Positions 1 through 43,255 of a stretch of DNA of 64,000 bases are shown here, in pieces. The translations under genes and the position numbers were made by a program. Source of the stretch: Scenedesmus sp. PABB004 (Eukaryota); assembly GCA_014905635.1 (NCBI GenBank), contig JABVCE010000007.1, positions 248,001-312,000 on the forward strand, in the 5' to 3' direction. A model generated the notes under the pieces. That model searched no databases. It was not told the origin of the DNA and saw only the letters and a program-made list of their open reading frames with translations. Every line of letters begins with the position of its first letter. The first letter of the stretch is position 1.

Positions 1-833
1 ACGTGCAGCGCGCGCAGCACCGACAGCAGCACCGCGCTGGGCTGCAGCAGCAGCTGCTCGTTGACCTGCAGCAGGTAGGGCGACAGCTGCGCGTTCCACG
101 CCGGCGCGCGCGGCATCGGGTGCAGCAGCACCTGCGGCGGCGGCACGGGTGGCGGCGTGGCGTGAGACATGGGCGGCGCGAGGCATGGGCGGCGTGCACG
201 CAGAGGCCCCCCGCCGCCGAGGCCGAGGGCGTCTGCTGTCAGCCAGCCACGCGTGGCGGCGCACCTGCAGCAGCTTGTCCAGCTCCTGCTCGTCCGGCGC
301 GCCGGCAGCGGCCGCGGAGCCGCCGCCGACCGGCGGCGGCGCCGCCTTCCTGGGCGCCGCCGCTGCAGCGCCCTCGGCCGCCGCTGCCGCCGCGGCCGCC
401 AGCGCGCCCGCGCTGCTCGCCAGGCCCCGCCGCGGCGCGCGCTGCGCCGGCCAGTGCTGCTGCTGCTGATGGCGGGGCCACGGCTGCGGCTCCGGCAGCG
501 CCTGCTGCGCCTGCTGCTGCTGCGGCTGCTGCTGCGGGGCGGCGCTGCCCAGGGCGCGCAGGCCCGCCGCCGCGAGCGCCCTACGAGCGGCGGCGGCGCG
601 CGTGAGGCCCGCGCAGCGGCCGCGTGCGCGCGGACGGCTGGCGCTGCTCCCCCCTGCCTCGCGCACCTGACGCCGGACAGGCCGTCCTGCGCCAGCGAGC
701 GCGCGCCTGCGGCGGCGCGCGGTGCATCCGGGCGGCGGCCGCGGCCGGTGAGCAGCGGCCGCGGCAGCGGCGGCAGCAGACCGCGGCGGGGCGCACCCGC
801 GGCCAGGACGGCCCGAGAGCCCGCAGGAAGCAT
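1..833 (-). CDS. Hypothetical, probably organelle-targeted protein; 5' part of a gene that runs off the window start
   Basis: ATG at 833 (MLPAGSRAVLAAGAPRRGLL..., Arg/Ala-rich transit-like). GT donor at 666. Later exons read APDEQELDKLLQ| and VLLHPMPRAPAWNAQLSPYLLQVNEQLLLQPSAVLLSVLRALH, flanked by GT/AG sites. Confidence 0.4.
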   Translation of the reverse strand, partial: MLPAGSRAVLAAGAPRRGLLPPLPRPLLTGRGRRPDAPRAAAGARSLAQDGLSGVRCARQGGAAPAVRAHAAAARASRAPPPLVGRSRRRACAPWAAPPRSSSRSSSRRSRRCRSRSRGPAISSSSTGRRSARRGGAWRAARARWRPRRQRRPRALQRRRPGRRRRRRSAAAPRPLPARRTSRSWTSCCRCAATRGWLTADALGLGGGGPLRARRPCLAPPMSHATPPPVPPPQVLLHPMPRAPAWNAQLSPYLLQVNEQLLLQPSAVLLSVLRALH

Positions 834-1343
834 CGTGGGCCGACGCCCGCCGGGCGTTGGGCGTCGGGCGCGCGGCCTGGGGCGGGGGCGAGGCGATCGC
901 AGGCCGGCTGCGACGGCTGCGCGCGCGCCTGGGGCCCTGCCGATGCGTCAGATGCGGCGTCCGTCGAGGAGCGCACTCTGCCAGCTGTGCGGGCGGCGGC
1001 GTGGCGTGCTCGCGCGCTGAGAGGGCGACGAGGGCGCAAGGGCTCCGCAGGCCGCCCGCCCCGCTCCTCTCCTGCCCAGCCGGCGCTGAGCTGATGACTG
1101 AGCCACCCCGCGCTCGCTGGCTGCTGCTGCTGAACTGCCGGGCCTGGTGCCGACACCACCACCGCTCGGCCGCAGCCCCTCCACAGGCCCCGATCGCGCG
1201 CGCCCACCGCGCTGCCCGGGTGGCTGTGCCGTGCTGACAGCGGGCCAGCGGCGGGCCGCGGCGAGCGGAGGCGCGGCGGCGCCGGCGCCGCGTCGCTGCT
1301 GCTGCTCGCGGCGCGCGACACCGCCGCGGGTGTGGCGGCGGCG

Positions 1344-1911
1344 ATGGAGCCGGCCGCCCCCGATCCCGACCGCCTGGCGCTGTTTGACGACGCGCTGGAT
1401 GCGCTGCTGGATGCGCTGCAGCCGACGCCAGAGAGCGACGCGGTGCGGCGCGGCGTGGTCGCCGAGATGGCAGACCTGGTCGCCGAGGTGCTGCCGGCGC
1501 ACCTGCACCCCGGGCTGGAGGCGTTTGGCTCCTTCCGCGCGGGGCTCCACCTGCCGGGTGCGCGCTGGAGCGGGGTGCGCGAGCGCCGCGGCCGCGCCCG
1601 GCGGCCTGGAGCCGTTTGCGCGCCCGTGCCCCGCGCCCACGCCCTCTCCGCCCTCTCCCCCCCCCCCCTCCGCGCAGGCAGCGACCTCGACTTTGCCGTG
1701 ACCGGCTGGGTGCCGGCGGCGCCGCCGCAAGGCCCCGACGAGCCGCCGCCGCCGCCGCTGGAGCTGCACGAGTGGTCGCCGCACGAGCAGTGCTGCCTGC
1801 TGGAGGACCTCGCGGACGCGCTCGAGGCGCGCGGCCTCGTGGACGGGCAGGTGCGGCCGCCGCGCCGCGCGGGGCGCGGCGCCCGCCGCTGCTGCTGCTG
1901 CTGCTGCTGCC

Positions 1912-1962
<51 letters not shown>

Positions 1963-3003
1963 GCCGCGCAGCGCCGGCGCCCACGCGCCGCCGCCGCCGC
2001 GTCGCAGGTCGAGCGCATCCTGCACGCGCGCGTGCCGGTGCTCAAGGCGGTCCACGCGCGCACCCGCCTCGCGTGCGACTTTTCGATCAGCCGCCCCGAG
2101 TGCGCGTTCAAGGCGGAGATGCAAAAGTGAGGCGCGCGGGGCCGGCGCCGCCGCCGCTGCTGCGTGGGCTGCGCGGCGCCGCGCAGGGCCGCGGCGCGCG
2201 CCGCGCCCGACCGCCGCCGCGGCGCCGGCGCGCCGCCAGGCTGCTGGGCTCGCTGGACCGGCGCTACGCGGAGCTGTACCGCCTGGTGAAGACCTGGGCG
2301 GCGGCGCACGGCCTGAACGACGCGGCGAGCGGCACGCTCAACAGCTGGAGCCTGGGCCTCCTCGTTGCCTTCTACCTGCAGGCGCGCCCCACACCAGCAG
2401 CAGCAGCCACGCGCAGACGCGCCCGCGGCGCGCGCGCGGCGAGAGCGCCCCCAGCGGGCGCGCGCCCCGAGCACTCGCCGAGCCCGCCGCCGCCGCCGCC
2501 GCCGCCGGCGCCGGCGCGCGCAGTGCGGCGAGACGCCCGCGCTGCTGCCGCCCGTGTGGGAGCTGCTCGAGCGGCAGGCGCCGAGCATGCGCGCGCCGCG
2601 CGTGCTGCAGCGCCCCGGCGTCACGTGCGCGGCGCTGAAGCGCCTGCTCGACCTCGCGACCATCGGCGCGGGGGCCTACCTCGGCAAGCGCGCGCGGCTG
2701 AGCGCGGGGGGCGAGAACCCCAAGACCCTTGCGGAGCTGCTGCTGGGGTTTTTCGGCTTTTGCGGCGCGCAGATGGCCGCCTGGACGGCGGGGCAGGAGG
2801 GCACGCGCGCGAGCGCGTGGTGGGGCCGCTGGGTCTCCGCGCCGTGGGGCGCTAAGCGCTACATCTTTTCGATTGAGGACCCGTTCAATGCGGGTGCGCG
2901 CCGCGCGGCGGCGGCGGCGGCGCTTTGCTCGGCGGCGGGGGCGGCTGGGGTCCAGACACGGCGCGTGTCGCGCCTCGGAGCGCGACCCACACCCGACTCG
3001 CGC

Positions 3004-3037
<34 letters not shown>

Positions 3038-4308
3038 GGCGCCGCGCAGTCGACAACACCGCGCGCTCGGTGGGCACGCACAACAGCCTGGCCAACGCCA
3101 CGACCGCGGGCTACATCGCGTGGGTGACCAGCAGCAGCGAGGCGCGCATGCGCGCCGCGCTCGACGCCACGTCCGGCGGCGACGCTGCGTCAGACGTGCT
3201 CGCCGCGTACGCGTGGCTCTTTGGGCCGAGTGCGGTGCTGCGCCTGCCGCGCCTGCCGGCGCCGCTCGCGGGCGCGCTCGCCGCGGCGGTGCCGGACGAG
3301 GACGCGCGCGAGTCGCACGCGGCCGCGGACGCCGCGCTCGGCGGCGCGACGGCCGCGCTCAGCCTGAGCAGCTGCCTCGTCAACGCGACCAACAACGGCA
3401 GCAGCAGCGACCCGGCCAAGGTGCAGCGCGTGCAGGACGCGCTCGAGCTGTTCAGGCGCCTCGTGGCGAGCCTCGGCGACGGCGGCAGCTGGCCGGTCTG
3501 CCTCGGTGACTACACGGCGCGGCAGCGCGAGCGCGCGGCGGCGGCGCGGCGGCGCCTGGAGGAGCAGGCCGCCGACGGCGGCGCGGCGGGGCTCGCGGCG
3601 GCCGTGGGCGAGCTGCACGTCGGCTCCGCGCCCGCGCGGCCCGCGGCCTGGCCGCCGCACCGGCAGCAGCAGCAAGTCGCGCGCGCGCCGCGCCCCGCGC
3701 AGGCCCGGCGCCAGCCGCACCAGCAGCAGCTGGGCGGCGGCGGCGACGGCGGGGCCCGCGGCCGCAGCCGGAGCAGCGGTGGCGGGGCGGCCCACAGGCA
3801 CGACGCGCAGGCGCGGGCCGCGGCCGTCGTGGCGGCGCTGTCGGCGCTGCCAAACCACCCGCCCGGCGGCAGCGCGCCTCGGGCGGTCCCGGCAGGCAGG
3901 GGCCGGGCCGGCCGGCACAGCAGCAGCGGGGGCGGCGGCGCGGACCTTGGCGCGTCGCTCTTCTCGAGCAGCGCGCCGCTCCCGCCGCGCCCGCGGCGCG
4001 GCCAGGCGGCCGCCGCCGCCGGCGACGGCGGCGCGCAGCCAGCCGACGCCGGGGCGGCACCACAGCGGCACCACGGCGGCGCCGTGCAGGCCGGCGTCGC
4101 AGGCTCGGGCGGCGGCCCGCTGCTGAGCGCGGCGCTCAAGGACGCGCTGCACGCCGCCAACGGCGGCAGCGCCGGCGGGGACGGCGGCGGGCGCCGCCCC
4201 AGGTACCGCGCCGTCCGGCACGGCGGCAGCGAGGCCGGCCAGCGGCGGCACGGCGGCGACGCCGCGCCGCGGCAGCAGCAGCACGTGCACGCCGCGGAGC
4301 ACCACTGA
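1344..4308 (+). CDS. HESO1: Terminal nucleotidyltransferase/TUTase of the Cid1/HESO1 (MUT68-like) family, multi-exon
   Basis: Spliced motifs FGSF..GLHLPG|SDLDFAV (GS and DxD), ARVPVLK..CDFSI, LYRLVKTWAAAHGLNDAASGTLNSWSL, and the PAP-associated IEDPFNA|VDNTARSV. Low-complexity C-terminal tail, TGA at 4306-4308. Confidence 0.85.
1888..1961 (+). repeat. (CTG)n microsatellite inside an intron of the nucleotidyltransferase gene
   Basis: About 24 CTG units with one interruption, lying between the GT donor at ~1851 and the AG acceptor at ~2007. Confidence 0.9.
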
Positions 4309-4426
4309 GGGACCGCGGCACGGCGCTGCGCCTGTCGGCGGCGGCTTCCCGGCGCACGGCGTCTGCGGCCGGCCGCGCGCGCACCTGGCGCCCAGGCGCG
4401 GCTCAATCGGCACGAACTCGTGGTCG

Positions 4427-4431
4427 TGTAA
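4427..4431 (+). promoter_or_regulatory. TGTAA polyadenylation signal of the nucleotidyltransferase gene
   Basis: Chlorophyte UGUAA signal ~120 nt after the stop codon. Confidence 0.55.
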
Positions 4432-4564
4432 CTTTCGCGGATCTCGCGGTGCGCCTGTGGCTCCCGCGCCCTGCCGAGCGCCTCGTGTGTGCGCCCCAGC
4501 AGCATCCGTGCAGCCCAGCGCCGCCCCCCGCCCAGCGCCCAGCTCGACCCGCGCCAGTATCATC

Positions 4565-5629
4565 ATGCAGGCCACGCTCAGCAAGCCCTGCGCCATGCGC
4601 GCTGCCGCGGCGCCGGTGAAGGCTGCCCGGCCGTCCCGCACCACCCGCGTGGCATGCCGGGCTGGCCTCGAGCCTTATCTCCAGGTGCGGGCCCCGCTCT
4701 CGCTCGGATCGCCGCGCTGGCTCGAGCGTTTCCGCCGCCCGCGGGCGCCCATTGCCGCGCGCCCGTGCTGCCAGCAGCCAGGGCCACGCCGGGCTCGCGC
4801 GGGGCAGGGCAGCAGCTGCTGCGCCGCGGGCGGCGGCGCGCAGCGCCGCCGGCGCGCGCCCGAGCTGGCGGCGCACCGGCCGGGCGGGGCGCTGCGCAGC
4901 CGGTGCAGGCGCGGTGCGGCCGGTGCAGGCGCGCCAGGTGCATCGTTTCAGCTGCCTCCCACCCGCCCGCGGCCGCGCAGGTGTGCGCCGGCACCGCGAC
5001 GATGCTGGCGGTCGGCCGCTTCGCCTTCCTGCCCCTGCACCGCCGCGACCTGGAGCGCTCCGCCGCCACGGCCGGCCCCAAGACCACCGGTGCGCCCGCT
5101 CGCCGGCGAGAGCGGCGCGGCCGCGGGACGCGCCCGCGGCCGGCACGCAGCAGGCGGCGCGCGGCGCGGCGCGCGGGCAGCGTCGGCGCCGAGCAGCGCC
5201 GGCGCGGCCCGTCGCGGCCCCCTCCGACCCGCCCCCTCTGCCCGCGCCGCGCCGCAGGCAGCACCTACTTCGACAGCCTGCAGCAGGAGGCCAGCTTCAT
5301 CACCACCACCAACGACCCCGCCGGTGCGCGCGGGCGCCGCCTGGCCGCGCACCCCGGCCACGGCAACGGCGGCCGCAGGCACAGTAGCAGCGGGCGCAGC
5401 AGCGGCAGCGGGCGCAGCTGCTGGTGCAGCGGCTGACGCCTGCCGCCCGCCGCCCCGCGCGCCGCCGCCGCCACCGCTGCTCGCCCTCCCGCCGCCGCCG
5501 CCGCCGCCGCCCCGGGCAGGCTTCACGCTCATCGACACCTTTGCGTGGGGCGCGCTCGGCCACGCGCTGGGCTTTGCCTTCCTGGCCGCCAGCTCCAGCG
5601 GCACCATCCCCGGCGTGAGCGGCCCCTGA
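4565..5629 (+). CDS. PSAG: Photosystem I subunit G (PsaG) precursor, 4 exons
   Basis: Transit peptide MQATLSKPCAMR..., then MLAVGRFAFLPLHRR..GPKTT|GSTYFDSLQQEASFITTTNDPA|GFTLIDTFAWGALGHALGF, which matches the algal PsaG pattern. Confidence 0.92.
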   Translation: MQATLSKPCAMRAAAAPVKAARPSRTTRVACRAGLEPYLQVRAPLSLGSPRWLERFRRPRAPIAARPCCQQPGPRRARAGQGSSCCAAGGGAQRRRRAPELAAHRPGGALRSRCRRGAAGAGAPGASFQLPPTRPRPRRCAPAPRRCWRSAASPSCPCTAATWSAPPPRPAPRPPVRPLAGESGAAAGRARGRHAAGGARRGARAASAPSSAGAARRGPLRPAPSARAAPQAAPTSTACSRRPASSPPPTTPPVRAGAAWPRTPATATAAAGTVAAGAAAAAGAAAGAAADACRPPPRAPPPPPLLALPPPPPPPPRAGFTLIDTFAWGALGHALGFAFLAASSSGTIPGVSGP

Positions 5630-5765
5630 AGCCGTCGCAGCGGCGGGCGCTGCTGCCGAGGAAGCCCCGCGCGCGGGGTGTACATCATCATCGCCGGGCG
5701 CTGTTTTGGGCGGCTGCCGGCGCGCGGGCTTTTTCTCGAGCCCGCGTGCACACACAACGCGGCTG

Positions 5766-5770
5766 TGTAA
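5766..5770 (+). promoter_or_regulatory. TGTAA polyadenylation signal of PSAG
   Basis: TGTAA ~137 nt after the PSAG stop codon. Confidence 0.6.
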
Positions 5771-6151
5771 CACCGGAGAGCAGCGCCACTGGCGCACAGC
5801 GCCGCGGCGGGCAGCGGCAGCGGCGGTTTCGGGCGTCACCGGCCGCCCGATAGCCGCGCGCTTTCAGCTGCCGCGGGCAACCAAAACGCGCGCTGCCCCG
5901 CCAGGAAAACGTGCCGGCTGCAGTTGCTGCTGCTCCTCAGCCCTCCTCCTCTGCGCTGCAGCGCGCCGGACTTCGAGGAGCGCCAGGCCGCGCAGCGAGC
6001 AGCGGCGGCGCCGGGCATGCGAGCCGCCTTCGACCCACGCCAGCGCGCTACAGCCACTGGATCCGTCTCGGGCCGACGAGCAGCTGCCGGCACCGCGGCG
6101 GCACCACCGCGGCGCTCGCCGCTGCTGCGGCGGCACGAGCACTGGCGCCGC

Positions 6152-7277
6152 ATGGCGGCGGCCGCACCGCGGAGCTTGGGCTCGCCTGAGGAGCACCAGC
6201 GGCAGCACGTAGAGGACCAGCAGCAGGACCTCGAGCTGCTCCTCGTCGACGACCCGCACTCCGAGTACTGCGCCAAGGCAAGGCGCTGGTCGCACGCGCC
6301 CCGCTGGCGCGCGCCCCGCTGGCACGCGCGCGCTGCGCGCCCCAGCTCCGCCCGCCACGCGCCGGCGCGCCTGCGCCGCCGGCAGGTCAAGGTCGCGCTC
6401 GCGGCCAAGGGCCTCGCGTGGACGGCGCTGCCCGCGCCGCCCTGCGGCGGCGCCGGCGCGCCGGGCGCCACTCCGCTGGGCAAGATCCCGGCGCTGTGCG
6501 TGCGCGGCGGCCCGCTGCCGCGCGAGGTGCGCGGTGCGCGCACGCCCCGCAACCAGCGCGCGCGCAGCGCTGCCAGCGCCGGCCGGCTGGCTCCGAGACG
6601 GCGCCGCGGCCTGGCCGCGGGCGCGGGCGCAGGTGGTGCTGTGCGAGAGCGAGGTGATCAACGAGTGGCTCGACGAGGCCTTCCCCCTGCCGCCGCTGCT
6701 GCCGCGCGACCCGCTGGCGCGCGCGCAGGTGTGCGGCGCGGCGCGGCCGCCCGCCCGGCCGGCCGCGCGCGCGGCTGCGCCCGCGCGCCGGCCCCCGTCG
6801 TTCAACGCCCGCCCCGCCCCGCGCGCGCGCGCGCGGGGTGCGCCGCAGGCGCGCCTGGTCAGCCGCTTCCACGACCTGTACGCCGAGCCGGCGCTACGGC
6901 AGCTCTACGGCCAGGTCGCGCCAGCAACGCGCGACGCCGCGCGCGTCGCGGACGGGCGTGCGGCCTTCGTGTCGCGGCTGGCCCAGCTCGAGGCGCTGCT
7001 CTGCGCCGAGGGCGGCGGCGCGGGCGGCGGCGGGGCGGCCGCGTACGCGGTGGGCGGCGCGCTCAGCCTCGCCGACTGCGGGTGGCCGGGCCTGCTGACC
7101 TACGCCGAGCTCCTGTGGCCCGCGCTGGGCCTGGGGCCGCTCTCGCTCGCCGCGCTGGGCCTGCCGCGGCTGGCGGCGTGGCGGGAGGCGCTGTGGCGGG
7201 ACCCCGCGGTGCGCGCGGTGCTGGACGAGCTGGAGCCCGCAGCGCGCGCATGGCTGCACGCCAAGCTGGCGCAGTGA
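6152..7277 (+). CDS. Glutathione S-transferase, multi-exon (an in-frame upstream ATG at 6017 is also possible)
   Basis: HSEYCAK|VKVALAAKGL, PLGKIPAL (cis-Pro motif), LCESEVINEWLDEAFP..LLPRDPLARAQ, YAVGGALSLADC, PRLAAWREAL. Confidence 0.85.
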
Positions 7278-7545
7278 CCGCGCGGCGGCGAGCGGCCTCT
7301 GCAACCGGTTGCGACGCAACGACCTCTCCGCACCCGCGCGCGCGCCGACCCCTGCCGCCAGGCTCGGCGGCGGCGCCGCGCGCTCACAGCGCCTTCTGCG
7401 CCGGCGCGGCGGGCGCGCCGGCCGTGGCTGGGCCCGCCGGCGCGGCGGCGCCGGGAGGGCTGCCGGCGGCGCGCAGGCTCGCATAGTACGGCTCCCCGGC
7501 CCACGCCATGAGCGCCGCGCCCGGCGCGGTGCGCCAGATCTGGCT

Positions 7546-10500
7546 CTAGAGCGGCTCGGCGGCCCAGCGCGGCAGCGTGCCGAACAGACCGTTGAGCTCG
7601 CGCAGGAGCAGCGGCAGGCGTGGCAGGTTGTGCCACTGGCCGTCGATGAGCTCGATCGCGCAGCCCCCGGGGCAGGGGCAGGCAGGCAACGCCGGCACGC
7701 CGCCGACGCCCGCCTTCCACAGCTCCAACTCCATGTTGGCTGCCATGGCCGCTGGGTGGAGGCCGCGGGCCGGGAGACGCGGCGCCGCCCGCATCGCCTG
7801 CAGAAGCGCCGCCAGCTTGCCTGCACGACCCGGGGCGGGGCACTGGAAGAGGAAGTGGGCTGCAGTCTCGGCCGCCGGGGCCGACGCCTCAGCGGCCTTG
7901 CATGCGGGGCACGCAGCGCGCAGCCGCGCAGCAGCCGTGCTGCCCCGCTGATAGCCGTGCTCCGCGGCCAAGCCCGCGCATTCAGCGCGCAGGCGCAGTA
8001 GCAACTGCGCGGCCGCGCCGCGCCGGTCATCGGAGAGGTCTGCAAGGTAGTGCCGGGGCTGGGGCTTGTGGTGCCGCAGCTCGCCGGGCCCAAAGGCCCG
8101 CGCGTAGCGCGCTGCAATGCCGCTGGCGCTGCCAGCTGCGCTGCGTCGCCACGCTGCCGTGATGTACGCTCCCGCGCGCCGCGTGATGTGCTGCGCAAAG
8201 CTCACGGCGTCCCAGGCAAACGCGCCCGCTGCAAGCCCCCAGCTGCGCGCCAGGCTATCCAGCGCTCCAGTCCAGCCCCCACTGTGGCCCCACGCCCGCA
8301 GCGCACGCACCACCAGGCGGTCAGCGGGCAGGTGGCGCAGCCTGTGCCAGTAGCGCAGCGCCGCCGCGTTGCAGGCGACGTGCAGCGGCACGACGCCCAG
8401 CTCCTGCTGCAGGCAGACGCGCATAGCGTTTGGCGGGCACCCCAGCGCCCACGCCACCGTCTGCGTCTGCCACGGGTCAAGGTGCTGCCGCTGCGCCGCC
8501 GTGTCCCGGGACCAGACCTGCGCAGCGTATGTGACGCACGGCTGCACGACCGCTGTGAGCGCAAGGCGCCGCACACAGAGAGGCAGACGCAGGTCGCACA
8601 GCACGCCCTGCTGCGCGCGCGCTGCTCGGCCAGCCTGCTGCAGCCTATGCTCCAGGTGCGCGCCCCAGCTCGCGTCGTCCGTAAGGACGACGCCGAGGTA
8701 GGTGTAGGTCTGAACCGCAGGGATGGCCAGGCCGTCGGCGGGGCCCCACCACCACTGTCGCTGTGACGTTGCCGCTGCCGCTGCCGCTACCGCTGCCGCC
8801 GTTGCCGACGACGCTGCCGGTGCCGCTGCCGCCGTTGCCGGCGACGCTGTCGGTGCCGCTGCCGCTGCCGCTGCCGCTGCCGCTGTCGCCGCCGGCGTCG
8901 CCGGCGACGCTGTCGCTGTCGCTGCCGCCTCGGCCGCCGCCGCCGCCGCGGCGCTGCGACGCGCGCGCCGTGACCGCAGCCGCGACCGCACCACCATGAT
9001 GGCCGTCTTGGACGCGTCGCTTGCATCAACGCTGGCCTTGAGCCGCCAGCGGTTGAGCGCAGCATGCGTGACGTCGGCAAGGCTCTGCATCTCCTCCGGC
9101 GAGCCAGCCACGCCAGCACAGTCGTCCGCGTACGCCAGCGCAACGAGCTTATCGTCGGGGTCCGCAGCCGGGGCCAACGTAGCGGCCCCAGCCGGCAGCG
9201 CGGTGGCCGGCGCGGGGAGCGGCACGCCTGGGTGCGCCGCCCACACCTCGCGCAGCACCGCGTCGATGAACACGGTGAACATGGTCGCGGCCAGCGTGTC
9301 GCCCTGCTCCCAGCCCATGCCCGGCTGGTAAGCCGCCGACAGCGCGCTGCGGTGCAGCACGCGGCTGCGCGGGCCGTCCGTCATCTGCGCCAGCACGCGG
9401 AAGAGCTTGCCGCGCACTCCCCGATGCCACAGCTGCCACAGCAGCCCGGCGCGCCAGACGGTGTCGCAGGCCTTGTGGATGTCCAGGAAAAGGACATACG
9501 TGTCGAGACCGGCCGCGCGACGGGCGGCCAGGCAGGACGTGAGGATGAAGATGTTGTCCTGCGCGTTGCGGCCGGGCCTGAAGCCGTGCTGGGCGTCGTG
9601 GAGGTGGCCGCCCTCCTCGAGGTGGGCGACGAGACGGGCGTTGAGTACGAGGTGGTAGAGCTTGTCCACCGCGGAGCCCAGGGTGATCGGCCGGTAGTTG
9701 GCGGGCTCGGCGCGGTCGCCGCGCTTGTAGATCGGGCGCACGACGCCGTCAGTTTGCGCCTTGACCTCTAGGTCGAACTGCAGGTTGTAGAAGGTAGCCA
9801 GCGCAGCCCAGACGGCCTCGCCGCCAAAACGCAGGAGTTCGTTGGGCACGTCGTCGAGCGGGATGGGCGCGCGGTTGTTCTTCCGCGTGCCGGCTTGATC
9901 AGCGACGTCGTCGACGGTGATGGGTGCCGACAGGCCCGCATGCCCCTCGGCCACGTGCGACGCCTCGGCGCGGAAGCGCGCGACATCTGCCTCCACCTGC
10001 TGGCGGTGCTGCTCGTCAAAGTCGGCACCGCCGCGAACGCCACGGGGTCGCCGACCGATGCGTATTGCACTGCCAGCGCGTCCGCAATCTGCTGGTCGCC
10101 GACCACCAGACCAGCGTCGGCCGCGCTACCAGGTACGCGCAGCGCGCTGGGCCCGGCGTCGCGCGCGCCCGCCTGGCCGGCCAGGCGCCGTAGCTGCGCC
10201 CAGACGCCCTTGTCGTCACGCGCCGCCTGCAGCTGAAACACACGCTCGACGTCGCGCGCGCACGCTGCGCGGTGCGCGGCGTCGACCGCCTGCTCCAGCG
10301 CGCGCTCCGCGTCGTGGCTGCGCTGCTGCGCCACAGCGAGCTGCCCCGCCGCGCCCGAGGCGGTGCCGTCGGCGGCAGCCGCCGCGCGGGCAGCCGCCAG
10401 CGCGGCATCAGCGTCGCGGCGCGCGCGCGCTGCGCGCTGCAGCGCGGGCGCGGCCGGACGCGCGCCCGTAACGCCTCCCTGCCGCGCGTCCCGGAAGCCG

Positions 10501-10866
10501 ATGCTGCCGTCGACCGCCTCCCACAGGCGCGCGCACAGTACCTGCTTGGCGAGCGTGCACGCCTCCGCCGCCGCGAGGGCCCCCACCGCGACGCTCGCGC
10601 GCAGGTTGTCGACGATGGCGGCGTAGTCACGCATGGCCGCGTCGGCAGCGTGATGGTAGTCTTGGATGGCGCTGGCCGCGGTGAACGGATCCTTGAGCAG
10701 TTGTGTGCGCGCGACGCGCCGCGGCTGCACCGGAACCGGCACGCGGCGCACGGGGTGTGGCACGCCAGTCCAGAGCAGCAGATGGTCGGAGTGCGTGATG
10801 CGCCAGCCACGCTCGACCCGCAGCACACAACGTGCAGGCCGCCCCGCGGTGGGCAGGGCCCACGCC
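7546..10866 (-). mobile_element. Non-LTR retrotransposon (APE-type LINE), 5'-truncated and frameshifted; 3' end not resolved
   Basis: RT motifs NYRPITL, QHGFRPGR, LFLDIHKACDTV, QGDTLA, LAYADD and YTYLG. C-terminal CPAC..ETAAHFLFQC Zn-knuckle. Only the C-terminal SDH remnant of the APE endonuclease (THSDHLLLW, ~10780) remains upstream. No introns. Confidence 0.9.
7546..10866 (-). pseudogene. LINE ORF2 (APE remnant, RT, CCHC) split by a 1-nt frameshift near 10028
   Basis: The upstream frame ...VGDPVAFAA continues as GADFDEQHRQQVEADVARF only after a frame change (ORFs 9768..11387 and 7546..9996). Confidence 0.75.
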
Positions 10867-11998
10867 GCCGGCGGCGCGAGGGCACGCACGGCAGGGGGAG
10901 GGAGGGTGGGGAGGGGAGGAGCGACAACGGCGGGTGAGCGGGACGGATTGGTGGCAGGCGACGCAGCACGGCCCTCGGCGCGCGCGCGGGCTGCCGCAGC
11001 CTCCTCGGCGGCGCGGGCAGCGGCGGCAGCGACTACGCGGCGCCGTCGAGCCACGCGTAGTCCGCTCCCGGCGGGGCGCCCGCGTGCGCGGGGCCCGCCG
11101 CAAGGCGCGGGGTGGTGACGCCGACCAGCGGGTGCCAGGCGCCGTCGTAGTCGGCGTAAAAGCTGACGCTGTTGTCGCCCATAATAGGTAAAGCGGCTCG
11201 GGGGCGGGGCAGCCGCGTTGGTACGCGGCGGGCGGCAAGAGCCGCAGCGGGCGCGCGGCGCGCGGTGAGCAGGCAGGCCTGCCGCAAGCGCAGCTCTGTG
11301 TAGGCAGCCAGACCGTGCCCCCCGGCAAGACATGGCTGACGGAACGCCCAGGGCGAGCGGCATGTCGCCGGGGGAGGCCTTAGACACCGCCGAAGAGAGG
11401 CCGCAGCAGCGCAGGCACCGCCGTCAGCCGCCCGCCGCCGCCCCGCTTCCGACCAGCTGCGCGGTCGCGTCGGCGGCGTTCCTCCGCGTGCGCGGAACGC
11501 GCGGAAGAGTGGCGCAAGTCGCCCGCCCGGCGACCCGCTGCACGTGTGGCGAAACCCTCCCACGTCACTCCAGCAGCACTTCGCGACCTTATATGATCGG
11601 CCGCACAGCCGAGCCTGCCGCCCCGCCCTCGATCGTCGATCGACTCGCCCGCGGACCTCGACGACCCGCGACCATGGCTCCTCCCAAGGCCACCGTCCTC
11701 CTGGCGATGAGCCTGCTGGTCCTCCTGGTGGCAAGCGGCGCGCAAGGTGCGCGGCAGGCAGCCAGGCTGGGCGGTCAGCGCGCGCGGCCGCAGCCGGCGG
11801 CGCTCGGGCCTGAGCGCGCGCCCGGATCTCTCGCCCAGGCACCCTCACTCACTCGCCGCCCCGCCGCTGCCGCTGCCGCTGCGCGCTCACTCTCTGGCGT
11901 GCAGGCCGCGCCCTGCGCGACTCATCCGCCGACGCCGACGCCCGCGACAACGTGCCGTCGCCTGCGGCGCCGGAGGCAGAGGCCGCCAAGAACACGAC
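10867..11998. repeat. Direct repeat A, copy 1 (near-identical copy at 13503-14700; partial third copy at ~15790-15894)
   Basis: Base-by-base match from GCCGGCGGCGCGAGGGCACGCAC to ...GCCAAGAACACGA. Differences are a few SNPs, small indels and a Thr-Pro repeat expansion. Confidence 0.95.
11541..11595 (+). promoter_or_regulatory. Putative promoter of peptide gene 1 (G-box CACGTG, CACGTCA, TATA-like TTATATG); duplicated upstream of gene 2
   Basis: CACGTG at 11541, CACGTCA at 11561 and TATATG at 11590, ~80 nt upstream of the ATG at 11674. Confidence 0.45.
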
Positions 11999-12053
11999 CT
12001 CCCTGAAATGTGACTGGAAATGTTTTGGGGTCTGTGCCTGGTGTGGACCTTGA
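11674..12053 (+). CDS. Small secreted Cys-rich prepropeptide 1 (73 aa; exons 11674-11746 and 11905-12053)
   Basis: ACCATGG start context, phase-1 GT-AG intron with CTCAC branch site at 11886. Product: MAPPKATVLLAMSLLVLLVASGAQG-RALRDSSADADARDNVPSPAAPEAEAAKNTTSLK-CDWKCFGVCAWCGP*. TGTAA at 12507. Confidence 0.8.
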
Positions 12054-12558
12054 CCTTGGTACCCCCCCCCCCCCCGCTCTTCTAACCCCTGTGTATTGTT
12101 GGTGTGAGTGAACCTTGACCTTGTGTGTTAGGGCTTTGCGGCCTATGCCCGGCGCTGTAGGTCAAGGTCAGTTACATCACACTGGGGCCACGGGTTAGGT
12201 CAAGGTCAGTTACACACCACACGCTCGCGCGCATTGGTCCCGCGTGTTGAAGGTCCTGGGCTGTCTGGTCTGCTTGCAGGCCAGCCCGCTGCAGCACTAT
12301 CTTTATCTTTATCTTTTTTTAGCAGCGCCCTCGCGCGCCCACGCGTGCGCGCGTGCGCTGCCTGAGCTGTTTCAGCAAGAGTTTCACTGCGAGAGCCGGA
12401 AGCTCAGAACTCCAGTGGAGTACACACCACCGTGAGCAGAAGGGTGAACACGAGAAGTTCCCAGCCTGCCGCGTGCCCTATAAAGGCTCCGCGTGCCACC
12501 GGCGCTTGTAACGAAGCACTCTGCCGCACCCAATCAGCGCTCTCGCGATCACAACACC

Positions 12559-12855
12559 ACCGCGCGTCCTTTGAGGACGGTGGCTTGACCCGTGCAACCA
12601 CGTCACGCTGGCCCGATTGGGCCACAGGGGCAGCGGGGAAAAACCAGCGCAAACCCCGCCGTACCTCACGCAACCGGCGTGGGACAAACCGCCGCCAGCA
12701 GGGGCACCACACACCAGCCGGGCAAGCCCACCCAGGCGCACACGCCGCACACGCAGCGCCGCGCCCCGCCGGCCGCCAGTTGCAGAGTCGCGCCCCCTGC
12801 AACGTGGTGCACCGAATGTTGGGAGCTTGGAGCAGGATGACTGGTAGGCGCGAGA
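12559..12855 (+). repeat. Left arm of a ~300 bp imperfect inverted repeat (right arm 14851-15158)
   Basis: CTTGACCCGTGCAACCACG...GGTGCACCGAATGTT.GGAGCTTGG...CGCGAG aligns with the reverse complement of 14851-15158, roughly 80-85% identical by eye. Confidence 0.9.
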
Positions 12856-12911
12856 AGACAGTGCAGGGCGGCCAGTGGAGACTCTGTGGACTCAACACTG
12901 CGGGGCCGGCG

Positions 12912-13607
12912 TGAGCCGGCAGCGCGTCGCGCGCGGGGTCGCGGCCCGCGGCGACCGCCGCCCCTGTGCCGGCCCGATGCCCGCCAGATCCAGCTCCCTC
13001 CAGGACCCGCGGGCAGCCCAGCCAAAAGGCCAGCCGCACGCGCCGCCCACCACCAAGAAGCCTGCCGCAAGCCCGCCCACGCTCCCCCACCGCCGCCCAC
13101 ACCCACGTGCGCGCCGCGCCCCGAGCAAGCCGCGCCCCAAGCACAGCCCAAATGGAGGTCACGCAGCAACAGCACGCCACGACTCGGCGTGCACCGTTGT
13201 GCACGCCGGGGACGCCACTCCGCCCGGCGCCGCGCCCGCGCTGCTGCTGCCCCACCGCCGCCTGTGATGCGCAGCCCCCAGCCGGCGCGCACCAGGCTGC
13301 GCGCCGGCGGGAGCCGCTCCTCCGGTGCATGGCTGGGGCGCCAGCTCGTCCAGGTCAGTCCATAGGGGCGCCAACCGTCCAGGGATCGATGTCACATCCG
13401 GCGGCGGCGCCGCCGTCGCGTAGCACATCAGTCGCGCCGGGGCCGAAGACCAAGGCGGAGAGGCCAAGTACGTAGCCTCGGACGGGACCTGCGGCGCGGC
13501 GGGCCGGCGGCGCGAGGGCACGCACGGCAGGGGGAGGGAGGGTGGGGAGGGGAGGAGCGACAACGGCGGGTGAGCGGGACGGAGTGGTGGCAGGCGACGC
13601 AGCACGG
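12912..13607. repeat. Direct repeat B, copy 1 (copy 2 at 15199-15894)
   Basis: Essentially identical ~695 bp starting TGAGCCGGCAGCGCGTCGC. Its right end overlaps the start of repeat A. Confidence 0.95.
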
Positions 13608-14316
13608 CCCTCGGCGCGCGCGCGGGCTGCCGCAGCCTCCTCAGCGGCGCGGGCAGCGGCGGCAGCGACTACGCGTCGCCAGGCGCCGTCGAGCCACGCG
13701 TAGTCCGCTCCCGGCGGGGCGCCCGCGTGCGCGGGGCCCGCCGCAAGGCGCGGGGTGGTGACGCCGACCAGCGGGTGCCAGGCGCCGTCGTAGTCGGCGT
13801 AAAAGCTGACGCTGTTGTCGCCCATAATAGGTAAAGCGGCTCGGGGGCGGGGCAGCCGCGTTGGTACGCGGCGGGCGGCAAGAGCCGCAGCGGGCGCGCG
13901 GCGCGCGGTGAGCAGGCAGGCCTGCCGCAAGCGCAGCTCTGTGTAGGCAGCCAGACCGTGCCCCCCGGCAAGACATGGCTGACGGAACGCCCAGGGCGAG
14001 CGGCATGTCGCCGGGGGAGGCCTTAGACACCGCCGAAGAGAGGCCGCAGCAGCGCAGGCACCGCCGTCAGCCGCCCGCCGCCGCCCCGCTTCCGACCAGC
14101 TGCGCGGTCGCGTCGGCGGCGTTCCTCCGCGTGCGCGGAACGCGCGGAAGAGTGGCGCAAGTCGCCCGCCCGGCGACCCGCTGCACGTGTGGCGAAACCC
14201 TCCCACGTCACTCCAGCAGCACTTCGCGACCTTATATGATCGGCCGCACAGCCGAGCCTGCCGCCCCGCCCTCGATCGTCGATCGACTCGCCCGCGGACC
14301 TCGACGACCCGCGACC

Positions 14317-14768
14317 ATGGCTCCTCCCAAGGCCACCGTCCTCCTGGCGATGAGCCTGCTGGTCCTCCTGGTGGCAAGCGGCGCGCAAGGTGCGCGGCAG
14401 GCAGCCAGGCTGGGCGGTCAGCGCGCGCGGCCGCAGCCGGCGGCGCTCGGGCCTGAGCGCGCGCCCGGATCTCTCGCCCAGGCACCCTCACTCACTCGCC
14501 GCCCCGCCGCTGCCGCTGCCGCTGCGCGCTCACTCTCTGGCGTGCAGGCCGCGCCCTGCGCGACTCATCCGCCGACGCCGACGCCGGCGACAAGCCAACG
14601 CCGACGCCGACGCCGACGCCGACGCCGCCGACGCCGACGCCGACGCCGCCGACGCCGCCGACGCCTGCGGCGCCGGAGGCAGAGGCCGCCAAGAACACGA
14701 TCTCCTCGAAGATGGACGACTGCTGGTATTGCTTGCTGCTTGGCTGGACTTGCCAAGGTTCTTGCTAA
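14317..14768 (+). CDS. Small secreted Cys-rich prepropeptide 2 (97 aa; exons 14317-14389 and 14548-14768)
   Basis: Same exon 1 and intron as gene 1. Product: [100 protein letters not shown] at 14766. Confidence 0.8.
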
Positions 14769-14850
14769 ACCCTAAACCCTGCCCGGTGCCCGCGGGGGCG
14801 GTTGGGGGCTACATGGGCGCAGGCTGAAAAATTGGCCGCCCTGCACGGCC

Positions 14851-15158
14851 TACTCGCGTCTACCGGTCATCCTTCCCCAAGCTCCTAACATTCGGTGCAC
14901 CACGTCGCAGGGGGCGCGACTCTGCGAGTGACGGCCGGCGGGGCGCGGCGCGGCGCGGCGTGTGCTGCGTGTGCGCCTGGGCAGGCTTGCCGCGGTTGGT
15001 GTGTGGTGCCCCTGCTGGTTGCGGCCTGCCCCACGTCGTTTGCGTGAGATGAGGCGGGGTTTGCGCTGGTTTTCCCCCGCTGCCCCTGTGGCCCGGTAGG
15101 GCCTGCGGCGTGGTTGCACGGGTCAAGAGGACCAGCTACCGTCCTTAAGGGGCGCGGG
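14851..15158 (-). repeat. Right arm of the ~300 bp inverted repeat
   Basis: Reverse-complement match to 12559-12855. Confidence 0.9.
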
Positions 15159-15198
15159 CCCGATGTGCGCGAGCATACGGGGTAAATGACCTTGACCT

Positions 15199-17856
15199 TG
15201 AGCCGGCAGCGCGTCGCGCGCGGGGTCGCGGCCCGCGGCGACCGCCGCCCCTGTGCCGGCCCGATGCCCGCCAGATCCAGCTCCCTCCAGGACCCGCGGG
15301 CAGCCCAGCCAAAAGGCCAGCCGCACGCGCCGCCCACCACCAAGAAGCCTGCCGCAAGCCCGCCCACGCTCCCCCACCGCCGCCCACACCCACGTGCGCG
15401 CCGCGCCCCGAGCAAGCCGCGCCCCAAGCACAGCCCAAATGGAGGTCACGCAGCAACAGCACGCCACGACTCGGCGTGCACCGTTGTGCACGCCGGGGAC
15501 GCCACTCCGCCCGGCGCCGCGCCCGCGCTGCTGCTGCCCCACCGCCGCCTGTGATGCGCAGCCCCCAGCCGGCGCGCACCAGGCTGCGCGCCGGCGGGAG
15601 CCGCTCCTCCGGTGCATGGCTGGGGCGCCAGCTCGTCCAGGTCAGTCCATAGGGGCGCCAACCGTCCAGGGATCGATGTCACATCCGGCGGCGGCGCCGC
15701 CGTCGCGTAGCACATCAGTCGCGCCGGGGCCGAAGACCAAGGCGGAGAGGCCAAGTACGTAGCCTCGGACGGGACCTGCGGCGCGGCGGGCCGGCGGCGC
15801 GAGGGCACGCACGGCAGGGGGGGGGGGGGGGGGGAGGGGAGGAGCGACAACGGCGGGTGAGCGGGACGGAGTGGTGGCAGGCGACGCAGCACGGCTGCCG
15901 GCGGCGCGGCACGCCCAGGGGGCGGGGCGCGGGCGCGTCGCGGCGACGGTGCGGACGGCGGCGGAGGCGGGCGCAGCCGGCGCGTGCCGCGTACCTTGCC
16001 GCTCTCCAGCGGGCCGACCACGCCGAGGCGGATCGTGGCGGCGATGTCGATCGACGCGGGCACCAGCAGGCTGGGCGGCAGCCAGGCGCTGCGCTTCGGA
16101 GCCACGCGCACGACGCCCTGCACCTTGACGATGCTGCGCGCGCCGCCCACGGCGTGCACCTGCGCGCTCGGGCCGTTGTTGTACGGCACCGCACAGCGTG
16201 AAGTGCGCGGCGCGCTGCCGGCGTGCGCCACGGCTGTGGCAGCTGCGGCGCGCGCCTCGACAAGCGCGGGGTGGAGGGACAGCGCCGCGACGCTCTTGCC
16301 GAGGTAGACAGCGAGCCGGAGGTCTTCGCGGCAGCTCGTGGTGATGATGGGGCTGTCCCAGACCACGCCGGCGCCGGCCAGCGGGGACCGGCCGGGGCGA
16401 CGCTGATGTTTGGGCCGTCCGCCCGCGCCGTCGCAGCGTGCCTGCGGGCCGTCCACGGCAGCAGCGGCGTCAACGTCCGCGCCGGCCTGCCACCGCCGCC
16501 GCCGCCGCCGCCAAGCCGGCAGATGGGCGCCGCGTGCCACGGCAGCAACAGCGCCAGTGGCAGCAGCGCCAGCAGCAGCGGCGGCGCCGGCGGCGGCAGC
16601 AGCAGCAGCGGCGCCAGCAGCAGCGGTGCCGGCAGCGGCGGTGTGAGCGCGAGCAGCAGCGGCAGCGGCGGCGCGAGCTTGCCGCCGCCGCCGCCGCCGC
16701 CGCCGCGGCCGCCGCCCACGAGCAGCAGCAACAGCAGCGGCGGCGGCGGCGGCGCAGGGGCGCTGGCGGCGCGTGCGCCGCCGGCTGCCGCTGCAACCAA
16801 GGCGGCGGGGCCGGCGGCGCCCAGCCGCACCCGCGAGGCGCACGCGCCGCGCGGGGAGCAGGCGCCGCCGCAGCCGCAGCCGAGCACGCTGCACGAGGTG
16901 CGCGTGCAGAACGGTGACAGCGCAATGGTGCGGGCGGCGCGCCAGCGCTCGCAGCGCCTGCAGCAGCGGGGCCGGGCGTCGCCGGCGGCCGACCGCCGGG
17001 CGTCGCCCGCCCCGGCCGCGCGCGCGCCGGCCAGCGCGCCGGCGGCCAGCAAGCGCCGGGCGGCGGCGCGCTCAGCGCGGCGGCAGCGTTGCGCGCACTC
17101 CCGTACCGAGGCGGAGGACACCTCGCGGCGGCGGCGAGCCCGTGCGGCCGCCGCGGCGGCAGCAGTCTGCCGAGGAGGAGGCGGCGGCCTACAAGCGCAA
17201 GTGCGCGGCGGAGCAGCGCCGCCGCGACTACGACGCCATTATATACCCCGCCGCCGCCGGCGCGCGACGCAGCCCCGCTGGCCGGCGCCGGCGTGGCGTG
17301 GGAGGGCCGGGGCGACCGCTGGCGAGCGCGGCGGGCGGCCGGGCGGGGGCGGGCGCGGGCGGGTAGGCCGCCCGAGCGCGCGTGCCGCCGCGCATGTGGC
17401 GACGACGACGACCTGGCCACGCGGTGCCCCAGCGCGAGCGTGACACGTCACGGCGCGTGATGCTGCTCCGAGCCCCGAGGGGTGGGGCTCAAGGCTAGGC
17501 CCGCTGCGCTCTCGCTGTGACGCTCCCCCGCCCGGCGCAGCGGACACATTCGCGAGCGACGCCTTCCCGTGCGGTGGGTGACATCCTCGCGCCGCCACGT
17601 GCTCCTCCATGCCGCGCGCCTGCGCCCGGGCGGCGCAGGGCGGCGTGGGCAGCGCCGACCGTTTCGGCCGCGCCGCGCCGCTGCCACGCGCCTCAAAGAG
17701 CCGAGCGGCGCCCCTGACGATGCGAGCGACGCCTTGGGGCATGTCAGAGGGGGCAAACGCGGGCGTGGCGGGCGGGAGGCTGGCGCCAGCGCCGTAGCGG
17801 GCCTCGACCTCAGCGACGTTGGGCGCGAGCGCGTGCGCCACGGGGCCCCCAGCCAT
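15199..17856 (-). CDS. Possible multi-exon hypothetical gene whose 3' part is repeat B; structure uncertain
   Basis: ATG at 17856 (MAGGPVAHALAPNVAEVEARYG...RLFE, then a GC donor). Complex exon VVWDSPIITTSCREDLRLAVYLGK...GPLESGK with a GT donor near 15993, then a C-rich intron tail and a CGCAG acceptor near 15776. Confidence 0.3.
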
Positions 17857-30586: not shown

Positions 30587-31437
30587 ATGTCCCGCGCGCT
30601 GGCGCTCGCCGCCCTGCTGGGGCTGGCAGCCCTGGCGAGCGCCGCGATTGACGGAAGTGAGACACAGTGTCTGCCAGTGTCTCGCAGCGCTCCGAGCGCG
30701 CTCATGGCCAGCTGGGCCGCGACAGGGCAGCGGGACGGGGCGGCGCGAGCGCCGCCGGCGGCGCCCGACGCCCCCGCCCTGGCCGCCCCCCGCAGGTGCT
30801 GAGCAGAGCACCGGCGCCCGCACGCGCGTGACGGCGACGCGCGCGGCGAAGCCGACCGCCGCGCCCGGCGGCTGGCAGGCGGTCAACGACCGGCCAGCGC
30901 CCGCGAGCCGGCAGCTGCGCCGCGCGGTGGCGCGCGTCGGGGCGCGCTGGCGGCGCGCCCCGCCGACGACGCGGAGCCCGCCGCCAGGCGCGGCGCCAAC
31001 CGCGGCGAGCGGAGGGAGTCGAGCCCTGGTGCGCGCCGGGGGCGCGCGGGCCGCGGCGCCGCGCTGGCGCTCGCCGCGCCGCGCCGCGCTGCCGCCCTGA
31101 CCCGCCCATCCCTGCCCGCCGCCGGCTCTCAGCCGACAGCTGCCGCGTTACACTCAACGCCTGGGCCCAGTGCGGCGGCAAGAGCAACTGCCAGGGCGCC
31201 AGCTGCGGCGACGCGGTGCGTGCCGGCTCGTGGCCGCCGGCGCGCTGCGCGCGTGCGCGCCCGCCCCGCAGCCTGTGTGCCCCGGCCTGACGCCTGGCGC
31301 CCGCACCGCCTGCTGCGCGGCCGCAGCAATGGGAGGGCCAGTGCTGCCCCTCTGGCAGCACGTGCACGCGCAGCAGCGAGTGGTTCTACCAGTGCCAGCC
31401 CGGCAACGGCGGCGGCGGCAACAACAATAACAACAAT

Positions 31438-31499
<62 letters not shown>

Positions 31500-37718: not shown

Positions 37719-39988
<2,270 letters not shown>

Positions 39989-43250: not shown

Positions 43251-43255
43251 TTACA
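43251..43255 (-). promoter_or_regulatory. TGTAA polyadenylation signal of the ArsS-like gene
   Basis: TTACA on the + strand, ~10 nt beyond the stop codon. Confidence 0.5.

Follow-up and report, generated by a model that had tools for sequence, protein, structure and literature searches.

Do two closely spaced, partly identical loci in a green alga encode working members of a diversified peptide family, or a duplicated gene whose ends are accidental? The loci lie in a 64-kb stretch of Scenedesmus sp. PABB004 (contig JABVCE010000007.1, positions 248,001 to 312,000), referred to here as the window, which sets the scope of all copy counts and self-comparisons below. An initial annotation proposed that each locus is a spliced gene for a secreted prepropeptide, with a conserved signal and pro region leading into a hypervariable core that holds four Cys residues, as in conotoxins. 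A different reading is given an even chance here: the pair represents a duplicated lineage-specific (orphan) sequence, either a two-exon gene or part of such a gene, which would encode a small secreted protein rich in Asp, Ala, and Pro and whose two 3' ends are accidental.

The sequence features themselves are confirmed. The two GT-AG spliced models, 11674-12053 and 14317-14768, give the translations first reported: a product of 73 aa for copy 1 (exon 2 to 12053) and one of 97 aa for copy 2 (exon 2 to 14768). Homology between the copies at the codon level ends at 12016/14719 (K-C/M-D). After the common Lys, copy 1 continues for 14 residues and copy 2 for 18, with the tails CDWKCFGVCAWCGP and (M)DDCWYCLLLGWTCQGSC, respectively. 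Translation confirms that the tails differ and that each contains four Cys, spaced C-x3-C-x3-C-x2-C in copy 1 versus C-x2-C-x6-C-x3-C in copy 2. Each tail is preceded by one Lys only, and the dibasic pairs KR and RR are both lacking. Copy 2 also carries an ACGCCG-type microsatellite of 60 nt (about 14593-14653), read as (PT)n, through which the frame is kept because the repeat unit is 3 or 6 nt.

Identity between the copies extends well outside the reading frames. From 11040 to 11942, 903 nt are 100% identical to copy 2, a stretch that covers the promoter, exon 1, the intron, and 38 nt at the opening of exon 2. The sharing that the initial annotation described, from the promoter through exon 1 and the intron into exon 2, is thereby confirmed, and the match is far above chance. 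However, the leader is shared because both copies lie in a 1.09-kb duplicated block, in which the non-coding DNA is equally identical. The "conserved leader" is conserved as DNA, not as protein.

This block belongs to a larger structure, consisting of two tandem copies of a unit of ~2.3-2.6 kb: a repeat; the 5' half of the gene; a middle; block B; and the repeat again. Direct repeats are present at both ends and at the junction, and the junction copy is a hybrid, as in a tandem duplication. Specifically, the middle bounding repeat is a mosaic that holds variants of both outer copies, which is the trace expected of unequal crossing-over or gene conversion. Between its ends, the unit has been restructured: it holds an inverted repeat-bearing segment of ~0.4-0.7 kb, indels, and low-GC DNA. 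The inverted match (12584-12874 vs 15127-14833) shows 86.5% identity over ~295 nt; the inverted stretch also takes in 12196-12276 vs 15205-15120, and 0 of 500 shuffles reach the score of either end. Neither block B nor the adjoining block C has coding potential on either strand, so an interpretation of the divergent middle as an intron ahead of a shared last exon in block B was rejected. The two copies would have arisen by unequal crossing-over between the ~105-nt repeats, and the colinear ends of the units would have been made identical by the same event or by later gene conversion.

The tails, by comparison, have nothing in common as DNA. Their local alignment scores 7.0, below the mean of 7.9 for shuffled sequence, and 409 of 500 shuffles equal or exceed it; the tails were thus rejected as diverged homologues. 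Alignable neighbouring DNA of the two units is 86-90% identical. Because these neighbours differ by only 10-14%, point substitution cannot account for the lost similarity of the tails, and at least one tail is evidently a replacement. Both are located at the left edge of the restructured middle, where the inverted repeat-bearing segment starts, and tail 1 stands at the start of the window's largest low-GC island (11967-12468). Beyond short motifs, no copy of tail DNA was found among the repeats of the window.

Codon usage in the tails departs from that of the genes. Confirmed genes use TGC over TGT at 31:1 and AAG over AAA at 36:0; tail 1 uses TGT at 4 of 4 and AAA at 2 of 2 positions, the four Cys codons being counted over tail 1 plus the codon at 12009. 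The GC content of third codon positions (GC3) in confirmed coding sequence (1158 windows of 15 codons) has a median of 1.0 and a minimum of 0.60. Tail 1, at 0.40, falls below all 1158 of these windows; tail 2, at 0.68, is in a range rarely reached, with 0.9% of confirmed windows at or below 0.70. Both stop codons, moreover, belong to repeat motifs. The TGA of tail 1 (12051-12053) is inside a copy of the GGACCTTGACC motif, and together with the last codons it lies within a GGTCAAGGTCA-type motif that has 6 matches in the window, 5 of them at this locus, vs 0.26 expected. The TAA of tail 2 (14766-14768) is the start of a telomere-like (AAACCCT)2 repeat (14766-14780). Taken at the level of sequence, the evidence says that the tails are not coding, or have been coding only very recently.

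These motifs have features of their own. The GGTCAAGGTCA motif is clustered in both orientations at 12045-12208 and 15187-15203; a run of 14 C (12062-12075) adjoins the cluster, which includes a 19-nt direct repeat (12158-12176 = 12196-12214). In appearance, the cluster resembles one end of a small element that is mobile or recombines. A motif-flanked invertible cassette that changes the C-terminus was rejected, since the stop of copy 1 lies inside the motif and inversion would leave the protein unchanged. The (AAACCCT)2 repeat, which has a weaker match at 27294-27307, may mark an old break or a regulatory telo-box.

What, then, of the front half? Coding log-odds were built from 1292 codons of homology-confirmed coding sequence. 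In the proposed frame, exon 1 scores +0.26 per codon (its other frames, -0.5 to -1.3) and the shared exon 2 of copy 1 scores +0.32; for comparison, two real signal exons score +0.18 and +0.59. The two positive-scoring frames differ, and the 158-nt intron that joins them is negative in all six frames. Among all windows of the same size, the scores of exon 1 and of shared exon 2 fall in the top 8% and 5.5%, respectively.

The start of the protein was assessed with our own heuristics (hydrophobic core and the -3/-1 rule), and the signal is in this sense a predicted one only. It ranks 2-3 among 512 ATGs followed by 25 open codons, with a Kyte-Doolittle core of 3.10, in the company of real N-termini: those of a GH9 gene (30587) and of a gene with a beta-lactamase domain (41167). 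A stricter start filter, devised after the sequence had been seen, places it second of 623 ATGs. By these heuristics it has the properties of a classical signal peptide (a positive residue near the N-terminus, a hydrophobic core of at least 10 residues, and small residues at -1 and -3), and cleavage at AQG/R or SGA/Q fits the -3/-1 rule. In both copies the start codon has the context ACCATGG, and a local dip in GC with TTATATGA occurs ~80 nt upstream. The intron donor, too, has a verified counterpart. Alignment to solved GH9 structures places two GH9 introns: GAG/GTGCGC...ACAG/G, of ~118 nt, and CAA/GTGAGT...GCAG/C, of ~190 nt. The candidate (AAG/GTGCGC...TGCAG/G) shares its donor hexamer, GTGCGC, with the first of these.

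The front half is therefore a likely small orphan gene for a secreted protein, or a fragment of such a gene, on moderate evidence. A secreted, spliced gene, as initially proposed, is plausible from signal rank, coding score, and donor site; the architecture of conserved leader and hypervariable core that was attached to it is not borne out. In the common part of exon 2 after 11942, the differences between the copies include at least 6 that are non-synonymous and 1 that is synonymous, a pattern that gives no indication of purifying selection beside the tails.

It is possible, if rather doubtful, that no gene exists here at all. The ATG, the Leu/Val-rich run, the GT...AG pair, and the open frames would then have come about by chance in intergenic or transposon-flanking DNA of ~78% GC, which happened to be duplicated. 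Stop-free frames are certainly plentiful, with 223 open reading frames (ORFs) of at least 180 aa in the 64 kb; the unspliced frame is itself open to 12006; and GTGCGC-type donors are common in such DNA. The locus is situated between a retroelement and repeat blocks, no part of it has a homologue that could be found, its exon log-odds reach merely the top 5-8%, and purifying selection has left no trace. On the other hand, this explanation must leave to chance a signal-like start that is nearly unique in the window and whose peers in score include real N-termini; a coding score that is positive in precisely the pair of frames linked by the intron and negative within the intron itself; the ACCATGG context; and the GC dip with TTATATGA upstream.

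On the likeliest reading, that of a gene or fragment, the ends may be explained as follows. It would sit in a transposon-rich stretch of a very GC-rich chlorophycean alga, and in each copy the frame would run from the shared pro region into different, unrelated, formerly non-coding DNA. Read-through would meet a stop within 14-18 codons, no differently from other frames in this DNA. The Cys content of each tail would then reflect largely T/G-rich composition and coincidence, rather than a conserved disulfide scaffold.

How strong is the coincidence? The initial annotation held that two unrelated tails which keep frame, length, and four Cys are unlikely by chance. In shuffles that keep the local dinucleotide content, a median of 11-20 codons is read before a stop, and the kept frame and tail length are therefore uninformative. 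The Cys count fares differently. Four or more Cys arise ahead of the stop with a probability of 0.02-0.08 in tail 1 and ~0.05 in tail 2, and the claim holds for this element alone. Among all stop-free 15-codon windows, 1% contain at least four Cys (1156 windows, 152 loci); among those with GC below 0.55, the figure is 33 of 646 (5%), tails included.

Several observations weigh against accidental ends. The joint chance of four Cys in both tails, ~0.001-0.004 under composition-matched shuffles, lies beyond what coincidence alone would be expected to give. Young genes need not follow the codon bias of their genome. Both tails hold Trp, and neither shows the Arg/Ala/Pro-rich "junk" of GC-rich DNA read out of frame. 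The in-frame pattern D-(DC)-W-x-C-[FL] fits the first halves of both tails, although it is not significant at the DNA level. Finally, a TGTAA motif at 12507-12511 (+), 454 nt past the copy-1 stop, is in keeping with a true mRNA extending through tail 1; copy 2 is followed by none. TGTAA is scarce in the window, with 3 occurrences on the + strand and 7 on the - strand, and most genes are without it; it occurs at 5766, 140 nt past the end of the PsaG/K frame, and at 43251 (-), after a DUF3641 frame.

These are also the grounds on which the initial proposal retains some standing: that both genes are working and secreted, with fast-changing, Trp-containing two-disulfide cores that are altered by DNA replacement and serve in allelopathy, defence, or recognition. 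The front half is gene-like, the tails combine four Cys with Trp and may be alike in frame over their first halves, TGTAA follows copy 1, and no known family claims the sequence. Because of the low joint chance for Cys, this proposal is kept at a small probability, and not lower. It faces the evidence set out above: only two copies, from one local duplication, whose non-coding DNA is as identical as the leader; a Cys spacing not common to both; tails that cannot be aligned while neutral neighbours differ by 10-14%; codon usage outside that of confirmed coding sequence; stops that in both cases lie in repeat motifs; and cores preceded by a single Lys rather than a dibasic site. In addition, no relatives were found in searches of clustered proteins, representative proteins, and metagenomes. 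As a description of the locus, a diversified family with conserved leader and hypervariable core is thus not supported, in view of the 903-nt DNA identity, the unalignable tails, the odd codon usage, the differing spacings, and the want of a third member.

The searches for relatives covered several levels. A search for further leader copies by tblastn, which had been suggested as a check, yields only the two within the window; all other matches there have E of at least 2.1. The spliced copy-1 product was compared with proteins of 40-128 aa among 5.8 billion clusters, giving 13 word candidates, none at E<=10. A HMMER profile made from both exon-2 translations, run against 1.84 billion representatives, returned 2 spurious matches to large repetitive bacterial proteins. 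The ESM Atlas search gave no usable match. A pattern scan of metagenome contigs gave at least 595 matches, of which 1 passed tblastn, an AT-rich bacterial contig that is spurious. Pfam, applied to the copy-1 spliced product only, reported nothing over the cutoff (best GLV1-2, E 0.044, 15.1 bits vs 28.1), and the minus-strand ORF 13358-14491 had no match at E<=0.001 among 8000 scored candidates. No described chlorophyte family of such peptides was found by keyword, and keyword listings are no proof of absence.

Metagenomes do contain part of the locus itself. Short contigs from three freshwater metagenomes (three studies) are identical to 14138-14554, which runs from the promoter into the intron; because they contain the intron, these matches represent DNA. 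A 916-nt metagenome contig matches 12590-13137 at ~90%, across the junction of blocks C and B. On these matches, the alga or a near strain would occur in lakes, and C-B would be repeated or variable. When contigs from 4 runs were placed on 11951-14850, nothing covered 11951-12144, which includes tail 1, and the microsatellite may account, through spill-over, for the cover seen in the tail-2 bin; one of the runs covers only 12152-12491. In the copy-2 microsatellite, unrelated metagenome contigs pile up to a summed depth of hundreds-fold, which could mislead checks of the locus that rely on reads.

The tandem arrangement admits a further interpretation, improbable in itself and combinable with any of the others: the two units could be haplotypes or alleles of one locus, brought into tandem by unequal crossing-over between homologues that differ in their middle segments or by an assembly that stitched two haplotypes together. 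Identity reaches 99-100% at the unit ends, yet the middle has diverged strongly and lies inverted, a mosaic repeat stands at the junction, and the matching metagenome contigs are too short to bridge the junctions, all of which this interpretation accommodates. Nevertheless, the passage from block B to block A runs through a real shared repeat of ~105 nt, as in a true tandem duplication, and the window bears no mark of an assembly break.

Cassette replacement is likewise a long shot: both ORFs would be expressed as secreted, Trp-containing peptides with two disulfides, and recombination in this repeat-rich locus would swap whole core ends while the signal and pro leader stay fixed, with the two forms perhaps segregating as alleles that act in recognition or allelopathy. 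Least credible are small wall proteins of the arabinogalactan or hydroxyproline-rich glycoprotein (HRGP) type, with a Pro/Ala/Thr-rich body and with tails that would be degenerate C-terminal signals, such as that for a glycosylphosphatidylinositol (GPI) anchor, removed in processing, so that any hydrophobic tail would serve: they would fit the signal-like start, the (PT)n run of copy 2, the AP/SP motifs of both copies, and the hydrophobic, terminal tails, but tails of 14-18 residues are short for a spacer plus hydrophobic segment, (PT)n is a microsatellite expansion in one copy only, and the spliced copy-1 product, the only model scanned, has no Pfam match. In a GPI anchor signal, the omega residues are small and are followed, after a spacer, by a hydrophobic stretch of ~15 residues or more.

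Table 1. Features of the duplicated locus and its surroundings, in window coordinates (a slash marks a splice junction)
Feature	Position	Strand	Remarks
Copy 1 exon 1: ATG, signal-peptide-like 24 codons, plus 1 nt	11674-11746	+	GC3 0.83
Copy 1 putative intron, 158 nt, phase 1	11747-11904	+	Splice sites AAG/GTGCGC...GTGCAG/GC
Copy 1 exon 2, part common with copy 2; acidic/Ala/Pro-rich "pro" region	11905-12016	+	GC3 0.91
Copy 1 unique tail	12017-12053	+	GC3 0.40; coding log-odds -0.85
Copy 2 exon 1, identical to copy 1	14317-14389	+	Translation, alignment
Copy 2 putative intron, identical to copy 1	14390-14547	+	Alignment
Copy 2 exon 2, common part, with microsatellite expansion	14548-14719	+	Coding log-odds +0.06
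Copy 2 unique tail, four Cys (TGC)	14720-14768	+	GC3 0.68; coding log-odds -0.22
Block A copy 1	10867-11950		Partner 13503-14593, 99.1% over 1091 nt
Block A copy 2	13503-14593		Partner 10867-11950
Block B copy 1	12912-13622		Partner 15199-15908, 99% over 711 nt
Block B copy 2	15199-15908		Partner 12912-13622
Segment inverted in second unit, begins with AGGTCAAGGTCA	12196-12874		Partner 14833-15200
Inverted counterpart in second unit	14833-15200		Partner 12196-12874
Middle copy of ~105-120-nt bounding repeat	13503-13622		Outer copies 10867-10986, 15790-15908
Retroelement: RVT ORF 7549-10125 plus upstream ORF	7549-11185	-	RVT_1 E 2.5e-18; 5' part overlaps block A

In composition the window is very GC-rich, with 70-84% GC per 2-kb bin. 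A Pfam scan of the 84 longest stop-free frames identified a nuclear PsaG/K gene; two tandem GH9 cellulase genes; a GATA factor; a SNF2/HIRAN/RING gene; an RsgA GTPase; and a minus-strand reverse transcriptase (7549-10125). By this gene content, the DNA is that of a photosynthetic eukaryote. The closest relatives of the GH9 exon are a metagenome protein (84%) and one from Scenedesmus sp. PABB004 (76% over 57% of the query), followed by Chromochloris (59%) and Monoraphidium (58%), which bears out the green-algal origin first suggested and places the alga among the Chlorophyceae near Sphaeropleales. The two GH9 endoglucanase genes are paralogues at 30587-36822 (+) whose intron positions match, and the start at 30587 is signal-like; their introns are open in frame, so ORF lists are misleading in this genome. 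The most hydrophobic ATG-initiated start of the window is elsewhere, at 39425 (+), where no gene is assigned, and may belong to another secreted or membrane protein.

Next to the locus lies the retroelement, whose coding potential on the minus strand extends to ~11180. No endonuclease domain was detectable upstream of its RVT_1 domain, and a 7-nt indel at 11039 in copy 1 shifts its frame relative to copy 2. In a single metagenome contig, the match ends at 14017 (= 11374 in copy 1), ~300 nt before the copy-2 ATG; this one contig hints, weakly, that the retroelement may end there and that the ORF may lie outside it. Among the 12 ORFs surrounding the locus, Pfam gave nothing for 11 even at E<=1, the sole match being RVT_1 on 7549-10125. 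Rfam and tRNA scans of 10500-16500 gave no matches.

Under the initial proposal, a gene-encoded family of diversified disulfide peptides would for the first time be on record from a chlorophycean alga, a matter of some weight for algal chemical ecology. What the evidence favours is more commonplace: a recent tandem duplication that took in a small orphan gene for a secreted protein. More generally, where a genome has ~78% GC, composition and duplication must be controlled for before open frames with a common "leader" are called a peptide family.

Conotoxin-type families combine a conserved signal, a pro region, and a variable, Cys-rich mature peptide, and the Cys scaffold is kept among members. 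Such a family would be expected to show many paralogues whose signal is conserved above the level of neighbouring non-coding DNA, mature regions that can still be aligned and that diverge through codon substitution with an excess of non-synonymous change, and a basic or dibasic site ahead of the mature peptide. As read from the ORFs, the locus resembles them in its signal-like N-terminus, its acidic, pro-like spacer, and its short four-Cys peptide before the stop. The differences are several: the window has two copies only, which a single local duplication produced; promoter and intron are conserved as strongly as the leader; the Cys framework is not kept between copies; the mature parts did not diverge codon by codon but consist of unrelated DNA; and there is no dibasic processing site, with tail codon usage unlike that of the genome's genes.

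Cysteine-rich peptides of plants (defensin-like, RALF, EPF, and LURE, among others) are similar in being small secreted precursors with an even number of Cys at the C-terminus. These families, however, have fixed Cys patterns, and the copy-1 product is without a profile match. In a 2017 survey, Volvox, the sole green alga included, is reported to have the fewest cysteine-rich peptides, most of them without signal peptides (PMC5557327). Arabinogalactan peptides and HRGPs of green plants and algae share the signal peptide, an Ala/Pro/Ser/Thr-rich segment, and, in copy 2, (PT)n; here, by contrast, (PT)n is a one-copy microsatellite, the tails are short and Cys/Trp-rich, and no family matches the copy-1 product.

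Orphan genes with turnover of their 3' ends offer the remaining comparison. Their counterpart here may equally be a dead fragment, which is the difference. The likenesses are the lack of homologues among those searched, the gene-like 5' half, the tandem duplicate bounded by short repeats, and C-termini derived from low-GC, repeat-bearing DNA at a rearrangement breakpoint. Seen beside such genes, the locus would be a tidy example of new protein ends arising from rearranged non-coding DNA.

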